The position numbers and the translations under genes are program-made. Shown piece by piece: positions 22,327 to 25,185 of a stretch of DNA of 39,517 nucleotides (positions within the stretch are counted from its first letter, which is position 1; each line of letters starts with the position of its first letter). Source of the stretch: an uncultured Candidatus Saccharibacteria bacterium (lineage in GTDB: Bacteria > Patescibacteriota > Saccharimonadia > Saccharimonadales > EFPC-124); NCBI GenBank assembly GCA_964436805.1, contig CAYTEG010000001.1, positions 1 through 39,517 of the forward strand. Reading direction: 5' to 3'. Below the pieces are notes generated by a model that was given only the letters and a program-made list of their open reading frames with translations, was not told the origin of the DNA and made no database searches.

Positions 22327-25185
22327 TTATATAACGAAGTTTACAAGTTTACCAGGCACGTAAATGGTGCGCGGTTTTTTGTTGCCCACAAACGTTTTAA
22401 CATGTTCGTCGGCCAAAGCCTGCTGCTCAATCTGCTCTTTGGTGGCATCGGCCGCAATCTGCAACTTGGCGCGCACTTTGCCATTTACCTGCACCACAAT
22501 CGTCACGGTATCTTCGACCAAATAGTTGTCGTCCCAGGTTGGCCAGTCGCTGAGGTGCACCGAACCTGTGCCACCAAATTGCTCCCACAACTCTTCGGCT
22601 ACGTGCGGCGCAAACGGCGCGAGCATCTGCGCCATGGCAGCCATTGCCCACTGCCAATCTTTCTTAGACTCACCCATGCTTTCGCGGAGTTTGTACAGTT
22701 CGTTAGTAGCTTCCATAAGCGCGGCGATGGCGGTATTGTAACCAAATTGATGCATGTCGTCGGTGACGCGCTTAATTGTTTTGTGCATAACGCGCTTGAT
22801 CGCCGTGTTTTCTTTGTCGCCTTCTGGCGCCTCGGTAACTTCTTGCGCGAGCGTCCACACCCGGTTTATAAAGCGGTACACGCCACCTAAACCTTCGGGG
22901 CTCCACGGAGTATTTTGGTGGAATGGTGCCAAAAACAAAATGGTTGCACGCAGCGCGTCGGCGCCGTAGCCGTTTTTAATAATGTCTTCGGGGTCGACGC
23001 CATTGCCTTTGCTTTTACTAAATTTAGTGCCGTCTTCGGCAAGCAGCAGGCCTTGGTTGCGCAGCGCGGTAAATGGTTCGGTAAAGCTTACCAGGCCAGC
23101 ATCGAACATAACTTTTGTCCACATGCGGGCGTACAAAAGGTGCATCACCGCGTGTTCGGCGCCGCCAACGTACAAATCAACCGGCGCCCAGTGTTCGACA
23201 AGTTTTTTACTAAATGCTTCGTTTGCGTTGTGCGGGTCGGCAAAGCGCAGCGCGTACCAGCTGCTGCAGGCAAAGCCGTCCATGGTGTCGGTTTCGCGTT
23301 CGGCTTTGCCGCCACATTTAGGGCAGGTTGTTTCGACCCACTCACGGTTTTTAGCCAGTGGCGAGCGGCCGTCGCCGGTGGGTTGGTAGTCTTTCATGTC
23401 GGGCAAAACAACCGGTAAATCGGCTTCGGGCACGGGCACAATGCCGTCGGTTGGGCAGTGCACCATGGGGATTGGGGCGCCCCAATAACGCTGGCGGCTA
23501 ATAAGCCAGTCGCGGATTTTGTACGTGACGCGCTCTTTGCCCATTTTTTTTGCGGCAAGGTCGGCCACAATTTTTTCGCGCACTTCAGCGCTTGGCATGC
23601 CGTCGTATTCGCCCGAGTTTACCATTAAGCCTTCGCCGTGGTAGCACTCGCCTTTTACTAATTGTTTAAAGGCGTTTAGGTGCGATTCGTCGTCGAACTT
23701 GGCTTCGACTTCGGCGGCACTCAGCCATTCCAATTTGAACATGTTTTTTTCGTTGTCGGCTAGTGCGGTCGCTGTTTTTTCGTCGTCGACTAAATCGTAC
23801 AACAAGCCGTACACTTCAATCCGGCGCGCGACTTTTTTGCTAAATGCGTAGTAGCTGTGGAACATGCGGCCGGTGCTGCTTACAAATTTTACGTTTTTGT
23901 AACCCGTTTCTTCGGCAATTTCGCGTGCGGCGGTTTGCTGGATTGTCTCGTCGCCTTCGATGCCGCCGCCAATAAACAGGTGCCCGCCAAACTTGGGGCC
24001 CCAGTTAAGCGCCAAATACTTGTTTGTTTTAGGATTGCGGATGATCCCCACAATGCTGCGCCGAAATTCGGGGTTTTGCTGCGGCTCGCCGGTTTCGGGC
24101 TCGATAACTTCGATGATCGGCAGGTCAAATTTTTTGGCAAACGCAAGGTCGCGTTGGTCGTGCGCGGGCACAGCCATAATCGCGCCGGTGCCGTAGCCAG
24201 CCAGCACGTAGTCGGCAATCCAAATCGGCACTTTGGCGCCGTTGACCGGGTTTACTGCGTAAGCGCCAGTAAACACGCCGGTTTTTTCGCGGTTTTGATC
24301 CATGCGCACGATGTCGGTTTTGGTGGCGGCTTCGCGGATGTAACTTTCGACAGCCTTTTTTTGTTCGGCAGTCGCCAGTTTTTTAGCCAAGGTGTGTTCG
24401 GGCGCAATTACCATAAATGTCGCGCCAAATAATGTGTCGGGGCGGGTGGTAAAAATGGTAAGCGACTCTTTGTGGCCGTCAATCGCAAAGTCGACTTCGG
24501 CGCCTTTGCTGCGGCCAATCCAGTTTTTTTGCATTGTTTTAATGCTGTGCGGCCAGTCTAAGCCCTCTAAATCTTGTTCCAAACGGTCAGCATAATCGGT
24601 AATCTTAAAAAACCATTGTTTGAGCGATTTTTTGGTGACCTCATTGCCGCAGCGCCAACATTTGCCGGCTTCTACCTGTTCGTTCGCCAAAACTGTTTTG
24701 TCGGTGTCGCACCAAAATTGCAAGCTTTCTTTTTGGTAGGCCAGGCCGCGTTTGTGGAGCAGTAAAAAGAACCACTGCGTCCATTTGTAATAATCGGGGT
24801 CGGAGCTGGCAAATTCGCGATCCCAGTCAATCGACAAACCTAAATGTTTGGCCTGTTCGCGAAAATTATCGGTATTTTGCTTAGTGGTTACCTGTGGCGG
24901 CGTGCCGGTTTTAATGGCATAATTTTCGGCCGGCAGACCAAAGCTATCCCAGCCCATGGGGTGCATAACCTCGTGCCCGAGCATTCGCTTAAAGCGCGCG
25001 GCGGCGTCGGTAATCGTAAAGTTGCGCACGTGGCCAATGTGCAGGCCGGCGCCACTGGGGTACGGAAAAAAACTCAGCGCGTAATACGGCGGTTTTTTGC
25101 TGTCGTCATGGGCTTTGTATGTTTTTTGCTCGTCCCATACTTTTTGCCATTTTGGTTCGATCTGCGAGGGGTTGTAGCGTTTCAT
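22327..25185 (-). CDS. leuS: leucine--tRNA ligase with an inserted Nudix-fold domain
   Basis: 952 aa from ATG 25185 ([17 protein letters not shown]; the ORF-track start is 25260). HIGH motif (LHIGHV), KMSKS variant KFSKSKG, CP1 editing-domain motifs ([20 protein letters not shown]) and [16 protein letters not shown]. An extra segment of about 145 aa (23641-24078) contains [23 protein letters not shown]. Confidence 0.95.
   Translation of the reverse strand: [952 protein letters not shown]

Follow-up and report, generated by a model that had tools for sequence, protein, structure and literature searches.

A Nudix Hydrolase Domain Nested in the Editing Domain of Leucyl-tRNA Synthetase from Saccharibacteria and Other Patescibacteria

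Introduction

What is a Nudix hydrolase domain doing in the middle of a leucyl-tRNA synthetase (LeuRS)? The question is raised by the leuS gene of an uncultured Candidatus Saccharibacteria bacterium, located on contig CAYTEG010000001.1 of assembly GCA_964436805.1. The stretch analyzed here, called the window throughout, comprises positions 1 to 39,517 of the forward strand (39,517 nucleotides), and an initial annotation, made from the sequence alone, had placed a Nudix domain within the CP1 editing domain of the encoded synthetase. Aminoacyl-tRNA synthetases (aaRS) are among the most conserved enzymes, and new biology has usually come to light where something was added to them, as with the editing domains and the eukaryotic signaling domains. 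A second, complete catalytic domain within the proofreading domain of LeuRS represents a new kind of embellishment of these enzymes.

Our preferred reading is that a complete, editing-competent LeuRS hosts a self-contained, catalytically competent Nudix domain in a hairpin loop of CP1, with adenylylated dinucleoside polyphosphates of the ApnA type as the favored substrates; we give it a probability of about 0.55. The nested architecture and its cassette behavior (gain, loss, duplication, and exchange independent of the synthetase core) are, taken by themselves, nearly certain.

Results and Discussion

Limits and Identity of the Insert

The boundaries of the insert follow from solved LeuRS structures. 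In the alignment with the T. thermophilus enzyme (PDB ID: 1h3n), residues 1–372 of the window protein correspond to residues 1–372 and residues 514–716 to residues 376–579, with 141 amino acids taking the place of 3. The two flanks of the insert are only 3–8 residues apart in the editing domains of the Aquifex (PDB ID: 3o0a) and S. pneumoniae (PDB ID: 4k47) enzymes. The initial annotation had given about 145 extra residues and a span of nt 23641–24078 (LeuRS residues 370–515), compared with the 141 residues obtained from these structures.

The insert alone matches the Pfam NUDIX model PF00293 with 57 bits (E = 2.8e-15), and the whole protein does so with 51.9 bits (E = 1e-13). As the gathering score of the model is 21.1 bits, the check proposed in the initial annotation gave a significant result. 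The Pfam model of the editing domain, PF13603, is broken off after position 149 of 185; the Nudix domain is therefore nested inside CP1. The box itself, G407-x5-E413-x7-R421-E422-I423-A-E425-E426-T-G428-Y429, is a perfect GX5EX7REUXEEXGU, and it can be read from the translation at nt 23899–23967 just as first described. Together with the fold model presented below, the PF00293 match and the split of PF13603 bear out the central claim: the LeuRS is of the canonical bacterial kind except that its CP1/editing domain contains a Nudix domain.

Predicted Structure

When modeled alone with AlphaFold2 from a 45-sequence alignment, the insert reached a pLDDT of 92 and a pTM of 0.85, and its order of strands and helices is that of the Nudix fold. 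A Foldseek search with this model returned 476 PDB matches at E ≤ 1e-3, and the top 50 listed are all Nudix proteins. The best match is 2azw (TM 0.71), a MutT/nudix family protein of E. faecalis with unknown function, followed by NudI, RppH, AtNUDT7, Ap4A hydrolases (including the human enzyme), and MutT1, all at 23% identity or less.

The full-length LeuRS was modeled from an 86-sequence alignment with a pLDDT of 90.4 and a pTM of 0.79. Within this model, the insert retains a pLDDT of 85–96 per 10-residue block, and its secondary structure matches that of the insert modeled alone. It is bordered by the strands formed by residues 361–365 and 519–521, which places it at the tip of a hairpin. 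The body of the synthetase superposes on the E. coli LeuRS–tRNA complex (PDB ID: 4aq7) with a target-normalized TM of 0.87 and an rmsd of 3.6 Å. In the models, the two halves of the editing domain are shown to close around the insert, and the Nudix module is predicted to fold by itself. The suggestion, also made at the outset, that AlphaFold could reveal an autonomous domain was thus confirmed.

The Synthetase Body

The host protein is encoded by a single uninterrupted open reading frame (ORF) on the minus strand, with a longest form of 22327–25260. We placed the start at 25185 because the homologues and T. thermophilus LeuRS begin at MKRYNP, and the length of 952 amino acids given previously is accordingly backed by homology. 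An in-frame ATG at 25260, 25 codons upstream (25186–25260), would extend the protein to 977 amino acids. The window protein scores 1041 bits against the NCBIfam equivalog TIGR00396 (leuS_bact), with a cutoff of 548 bits, and phmmer aligns it with T. thermophilus LeuRS (1h3n) at E = 1.4e-254 and 41% identity.

The HIGH and KFSKS motifs of the synthetic site, the threonine-rich editing motif, and the HDxRD motif are intact (Table 1), and from its sequence the synthetase looks fully functional. We equate the threonines of TTRPDT with E. coli T247, T248, and T252. In T. thermophilus, KMSKS is preceded by a leucine-specific domain (residues ~580–636). The window LeuRS lacks it (23011–23040), with residues 716–721 spanning T. 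thermophilus residues 579–637 in the phmmer alignment. This domain is also absent from 11 inspected relatives, with or without the Nudix insert.

Conservation and Catalytic Competence

In a close alignment of 45 inserts, E422, E425, E426, T427, and G428 are invariant, and conservation reaches 90% or more at E413, R421, Y429, and Y445. Across 35 diverse members of the subfamily, E425, E426, and G428 are still invariant. Y445 (Y80 of the insert alignment) is tyrosine or phenylalanine across the wider Patescibacteria set, and the Nudix box is preserved across Saccharibacteria, Paceibacterota, Doudnabacteria, and other groups. The mean identity to the window protein is 54% for the insert and 66% for the LeuRS core. 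Judged from these alignments, the insert is evolving faster than the core yet is clearly constrained, with its catalytic residues frozen. This combination argues for an active hydrolase, and we consider the Nudix domain very probably catalytically active.

Distribution

An exhaustive phmmer search with the insert among 1.84 billion cluster representatives gave 300 matches at E ≤ 1e-3, and 94 of the best 150 of these are LeuRS or LeuRS fragments. A word-index protein search with the insert alone found only three proteins and badly under-reports the family. In a collection of 5.8 billion proteins, approximately 106 of the 120 nearest LeuRS carry PF00293. These nearest proteins bear only names such as 'leucine--tRNA ligase', and their architecture is visible as precomputed Pfam hits.

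A genome scan, with one genome taken per species, found 37 loci, most of them labeled as Saccharibacteria or other Patescibacteria (Paceibacterota, Doudna-, Nomura-, Buchanan-, Taylor-, and Magasanikbacteria). The complete genome CP025011.1 is among the loci with a nested Nudix domain. The domain lies inside the ORF of a class Ia synthetase in 35 of the 37 loci, namely 34 LeuRS and one protein resembling isoleucyl-tRNA synthetase (IleRS), and the remaining two are stand-alone Nudix genes. The 34 LeuRS ORFs usually encode 945–1000 amino acids and are colinear with the window protein. For a stand-alone relative (P0003, L038), the genomic context was uninformative. The same insertion was therefore found lineage-wide, with a significant Nudix match, when related LeuRS were surveyed as the initial annotation had advised. 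From these sequences, the Nudix domain in LeuRS is best described as a widespread, exchangeable Patescibacteria cassette and not as a one-off.

Several Nudix-bearing LeuRS colinear with the window protein are found on contigs labeled as Magnetospirillaceae, Bacillota, Bacilli, Tenericutes, or Woesearchaeota (L001, L006, L012, L018, L019, L025). Similarly odd labels are attached to a stand-alone Nudix locus (L037, Woesearchaeota) and to P0240 (Limnocylindria). We suspect that these labels outside Patescibacteria reflect misbinning or mislabeling of metagenome-assembled genomes.

Cassette Behavior

The insertion site is empty in 14 of the 120 nearest LeuRS, which are 805–829 amino acids long and have a linker of 11–18 residues at this position. 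Two of them, P0195 and P0258, share the gene order of the window (Mur ligase, leuS, further genes, NusB, a 168-residue NUDIX protein, RNase III, and S16) and are therefore orthologues with an empty site. In a crude neighbor-joining tree of the cores, the LeuRS that lack the insert are nested among those that bear it at no fewer than three places.

The cassette comes in two types. The window insert belongs to type 1, and type 2 is marked by a 'GPRRKNWGG' loop. The P0161 protein is 73–90% identical to the window protein in most core segments and 62% in the C-terminal segment, with only 37% in the insert. Its insert shows 69–72% identity to the inserts of LeuRS with cores that are 48–77% identical over most of their length. 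A similar mismatch is observed between P0225 and P0186 (core 75–95%, insert 39% identity). The disagreement between core and insert identities indicates an exchange of the cassette in which the surrounding gene took no part. No flanking direct or inverted repeats were found around the insert beyond chance matches of 10–18 nt. The exchange would be explained most simply by homologous recombination in which the conserved flanks are used.

The cassette is also found in multiple copies. Ten LeuRS representatives have two or three Nudix domains, and the domains counted fall on three sites: site A inside the editing domain, which is that of the window protein (87 domains), site B at the entry to CP1 (17 domains), and site C in the Zn module (2 domains). 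In L012, two Nudix domains stand in tandem at site A, L033 has Nudix domains at two sites, and P0004 and P0006 have three copies each. The box has degenerated in some of the additional copies, such as residues 423–566 of P0004 with GGPENGQTPEEGAIAEIMEETGY, and these copies may be inactive.

Other Hosts and Other Nested Domains

LeuRS is the main host of this Nudix subfamily and is accompanied by a few others. In the IleRS-like protein mentioned above (L017), the Nudix domain occupies ORF residues 249–395. The same subfamily is found in an archaeal-type prolyl-tRNA synthetase (ProRS; P0144), where it separates the anticodon-binding domain from the C-terminal domain. In RNase PH (P0109) it lies between the two domains of the enzyme, and a further host is an M17 aminopeptidase (P0075) that also carries a pair of GNAT domains.

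Nudix is not the only hydrolase embedded in these synthetases. An alpha/beta-hydrolase or Ser_hydrolase domain is located in the LeuRS L027 (residues 255–399) and L035 (611–778), as well as in P0171 and P0216. A HAD_2 domain is found in the LeuRS L033 (832–986), and the histidine-phosphatase domain His_Phos_1 in the IleRS-like L017 (845–1004). In L027, L035, L033, and L017, these domains come on top of the Nudix domain. The synthetases of Patescibacteria are unusually permissive scaffolds, a property that cuts both ways for a functional coupling of host and insert.

Another recurrent insertion site lies near window residues 578–583 (core ~437–442), where L006, P0009, P0085, P0090, and P0131 carry segments of 100–190 residues. 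The segment of L006 (ORF residues 582–717) has no Pfam match.

Possible Function

We propose that the Nudix domain would work independently of the synthetase to which it is tethered, providing a second active site that hydrolyzes a nucleoside-diphosphate-X compound. It would act outside the chemistry of aminoacylation and amino-acid editing, as an accessory and dispensable module; no result of the analysis points to a role in amino-acid proofreading. The leading substrate candidates would be adenylylated dinucleoside polyphosphates (Ap4A, Ap3A, Ap4N). Since aaRS make these compounds as side products, LeuRS would clear its own by-product or alarmone locally.

A profile built from 35 members of the subfamily was compared with the PDB. 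The best match was again 2azw, over the full length (E = 7e-11), followed by the AvrM14 Nudix hydrolase effectors, known as mRNA-decapping enzymes, 3fcm, NudB, the Ap4A hydrolases of lupin and Aquifex, NudI, and Dcp2. A PDB search with the single insert sequence gave box-level matches only. By residue count, Y445 and Y446, 16–17 residues after the box, may stand at the tyrosine position of NUDT2 and RppH, which has a spacing of 16–18 residues. A tyrosine downstream in the X-loop is described as a specificity motif of ApnA hydrolases (PMC5389931). The conserved tyrosine and the leading profile matches hint weakly at substrates of the Ap4A or RNA-cap type. The synthesis of Ap3–5N by aaRS is documented, as is their degradation by the Nudix enzymes RppH/NudH and NUDT2, which also decap RNA (PMC7705103).

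The assignment to an ApnA-type substrate, taken separately, is tentative, and several observations weigh against it or against a functional role in LeuRS. All NCBIfam equivalogs are far below their cutoffs for the insert (best 26 bits, with cutoffs of 95–259), so that no substrate is matched at the family level. The RppH equivalogs give 17–23.2 bits against cutoffs of 116–259, and the MutT 8-oxo-dGTPase equivalogs 25 bits against 148 (NF008044) and 22.5 against 97.9 (TIGR00586). Identities of the insert to PDB entries do not exceed 23%, and 2azw, which leads in both the fold and the profile comparison, is a protein without an assigned function. The Ap4A hydrolases of lupin (1f3y) and Aquifex (3i7u) match with E ~1e-7 and ~20% identity, no better than NudB and NudI and worse than 2azw. 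The tyrosine motif is, moreover, a weak predictor of the substrate. The presence of unrelated hydrolases in the loops of other Patescibacteria class Ia synthetases, and of the same Nudix subfamily in an M17 peptidase, fits the picture of a permissive host carrying a passenger without functional link. The repeated loss of the module implies that LeuRS has no need of it. In addition, LeuRS is not known to be among the strongest producers of Ap4A. A tighter coupling, in which a cassette of tRNA-handling enzymes destroys Ap4A, Np4N, or other adenylylated by-products at their source, or trims or decaps the 5' end of bound RNA, seems rather doubtful.

Alternative Explanations

A housekeeping Nudix enzyme, for instance a pool sanitizer of the MutT, NudI, or NudB type, might simply be carried along by a gene that is essential and well expressed in a reduced genome, with LeuRS as a permissive scaffold and no chemical or regulatory link to leucylation. 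We regard this as possible, although not as the likely case. It would be in keeping with the unrelated hydrolases in other synthetase loops (L027, L035, P0171, P0216, L033, L017), with the M17 peptidase that combines the same Nudix subfamily with GNAT domains, and with the repeated losses that left the locus undisturbed; NudI, NudB, and MutT1 also score like the ApnA hydrolases in the Foldseek and profile searches. However, LeuRS dominates overwhelmingly among the hosts of the subfamily (94 of the best 150 representatives), and the three LeuRS sites are joined by IleRS, ProRS, and RNase PH, all of them tRNA-handling enzymes, a host bias that would not be expected of a random passenger, even though one ancient insertion followed by intragenic duplication could account for much of it. 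The genome also already has a stand-alone Nudix enzyme in a conserved operon. The same predominance of tRNA-binding hosts would favor a hydrolase of RNA ends resembling RppH, Dcp2, or AvrM14, which would remove a 5'-triphosphate or NAD and Np4A caps from tRNA or RNA bound by the host. AvrM14, Dcp2, and RppH are indeed among the profile or fold matches, the conserved tyrosine may be common to RppH, and Nudix hydrolases that cleave Ap4A also decap RNA (PMC7705103). Nevertheless, the NCBIfam RppH models reach only 17–23 bits where 116–259 are required, a basic RNA-binding extension was not detected in the insert, and the stand-alone Nudix gene between NusB and RNase III is a better candidate for RppH. 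Mature tRNA has a 5'-monophosphate after RNase P cleavage, and such an enzyme would therefore be left without an obvious substrate; we consider this explanation unlikely.

Catalysis might also have been abandoned, leaving a silent module for structure, regulation, or ligand sensing, comparable to NUDT9H of TRPM2 or to Nudix-type transcription regulators. Non-enzymatic Nudix domains do exist (PMC5389931), and the degenerate boxes in some extra copies of the multi-Nudix LeuRS (P0004) are compatible with this idea. It is very improbable for the window protein, in whose insert no catalytic residue of the box is missing, as in essentially all of the site-A copies; this would not be expected if catalysis had been lost. 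Finally, we consider it practically negligible that the apparent domain arose from a frameshift or chimeric join, or that it is a misread mobile or intein-like element; nothing was found in favor of such an artefact. The ORF is uninterrupted, the GC content around the insert is unremarkable, and more than 100 protein clusters share the in-frame architecture, as do 34 independent LeuRS loci, that of the complete genome CP025011.1 among them; an insertion that is lineage-wide is therefore no artefact. The possibility of a frameshift or assembly error, raised at the outset, is thereby set aside, the insert being in frame and conserved in more than 100 independent assemblies. An intein or mobile element was rejected on the junctions ...QQNP|EFRR... 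and ...VKGE|CYHG..., which have no Cys or Ser at the N-terminal and no His-Asn at the C-terminal side, on the Nudix fold, and on the lack of flanking repeats. An anti-phage defense module was likewise discarded, as PADLOC gave only a weak box-level match (PDC-S07, 19.6 bits).

Comparison with Known Systems

The window protein resembles canonical bacterial LeuRS (1H3N/2BTE; 4AQ7/4ARC) in its class Ia Rossmann core, the HIGH and KMSKS motifs, CP1 with the threonine-rich and aspartate motifs, the Zn module, and the anticodon-binding and C-terminal domains, and its model superposes on these structures with a TM of 0.82–0.87. It differs in having the 141-residue Nudix domain in place of a turn of 3–8 residues and in having no leucine-specific domain. 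The insert, in turn, shares the alpha/beta/alpha fold and the perfect box of free-standing Nudix proteins (2AZW, followed by AvrM14-A/B, 3FCM, 1F3Y, and 3I7U). Unlike them, its subfamily is mainly nested in tRNA-handling enzymes, with at most 23% identity to the free-standing proteins and no curated equivalog.

A precedent for a class Ia synthetase with an unrelated catalytic domain is, by its family name, NCBIfam NF040702 (isoleucine--tRNA ligase, N-acetyltransferase domain-containing). However, the synthetase there is a different one and the passenger is a GNAT domain; with 61.6 bits, where 1999 are required, the window protein does not belong to this family. NadM-Nudix (NMN adenylyltransferase/ADP-ribose pyrophosphatase; NF003788, PMC7824862) is similar in that a Nudix domain is joined to an enzyme of the HIGH-motif nucleotidyltransferase fold that makes an adenylylated product. 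In that protein the two parts are joined end to end and their metabolic link has been demonstrated, whereas the Nudix domain of the window is nested and its coupling only putative.

In the searchable full-text literature, we found no account of LeuRS, or of another aaRS, containing a Nudix domain, and the 2017 review of the Nudix clan (PMC5389931) contains no mention of tRNA or synthetase. Both parts come from known families, and it is the nested architecture that appears undiscussed in the literature.

If the Nudix domain acts on dinucleoside polyphosphates made by the synthetase, it would tie aaRS side reactions directly and physically to the turnover of alarmones. What function Ap4A has is a question that has long been open. 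Should host and insert be coupled, LeuRS of these ultra-small bacteria would be a bifunctional synthetase and alarmone or cap hydrolase, and the cassette alleles (type 1, type 2, empty, and multi-copy) would reflect selection on the second activity. Orthologues in identical synteny with a type 1, type 2, or empty site offer a natural experiment. More generally, proteomes of the candidate phyla radiation appear to build mosaic enzymes by placing small hydrolases in surface loops of essential proteins. For annotation, the case is relevant since pipelines label such proteins merely as 'leucine--tRNA ligase'.

Features and Genomic Neighborhood of leuS

The features of the synthetase, of its insert, and of the neighboring genes are listed in Table 1.

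Table 1. Coordinates of leuS, its motifs and domains, and nearby genes in the window
Feature	Position (nt)	Strand	Remarks
leuS, bacterial-type leucyl-tRNA synthetase with nested Nudix domain	22327–25185	−	952 aa from MKRYNP
HIGH motif, synthetic site (H49-I-G-H52)	25030–25041	−	H49, G51, H52 invariant in 86 aligned LeuRS
CP1 editing domain, N-terminal part, residues 220–372, ending at the insertion point	24070–24528	−	PF13603 profile positions 1–149 of 185, E = 1.4e-68
Editing-site threonine-rich motif TTRPDT (T246–T251)	24433–24450	−	T247, T251 invariant, T246 nearly so (86-LeuRS alignment)
Editing-site motif HDQRD (H342–D346), conserved Asp residues	24148–24162	−	H342, D343, R345, D346 invariant (86-LeuRS alignment)
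Inserted Nudix hydrolase domain, residues 373–513, tip of editing-domain beta-hairpin	23647–24069	−	141 aa; delimited against three solved LeuRS structures
Nudix box G407–Y429, catalytic metal-binding helix-loop	23899–23967	−	From translation; conserved in relatives
Y445-Y446, 16–17 residues downstream of the Nudix box	23848–23853	−	Y445 at least 90% conserved
Editing domain, remainder after the insert, residues 514–555	23521–23646	−	Aligns to T. thermophilus 376–422
KMSKS motif as KFSKS, residues 721–725	23011–23025	−	From translation; kept across 86 relatives
NusB	19656–20123	−	
Stand-alone NUDIX, 168 aa	19178–19684	−	PF00293, E = 3.8e-18
RNase III	18487–19191	−	
Ribosomal protein S16	17451–17846		After RNase III

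The separate stand-alone NUDIX gene, also pointed out in the initial annotation, is supported by its PF00293 match. It forms a string with NusB and RNase III (18487–20123) in which the gene ends overlap, and this string is conserved in L039, L040, and L041. Its position next to RNase III suggests that the stand-alone protein, and not the LeuRS insert, has an RppH-like role as an RNA pyrophosphohydrolase. We considered whether the insert might be a recent duplicate of this gene and rejected the idea, as only the box region aligns (36% over 53 amino acids). The reverse possibility, that the 168-residue protein is a split-off insert, was rejected because the NusB–NUDIX–RNase III operon is found in genomes with and without the insert alike.

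The ORFs that flank leuS at 20373–21086, 21202–22290, and 25365–26306, all on the plus strand, had no Pfam or PADLOC match. Two of the three lie in 1-kb windows with a GC content of 0.59–0.60, compared with ~0.52 nearby. The 313-residue product of the ORF at 25365–26306 has an N-terminus resembling a signal peptide and a stretch rich in Pro and Ala, and it has a hydrophobic segment at the C-terminal end together with an acidic tail. In the insert-less loci L039 and L040, the neighbors of leuS differ in number and length, and on these two features the ORFs around leuS look like variable islets.

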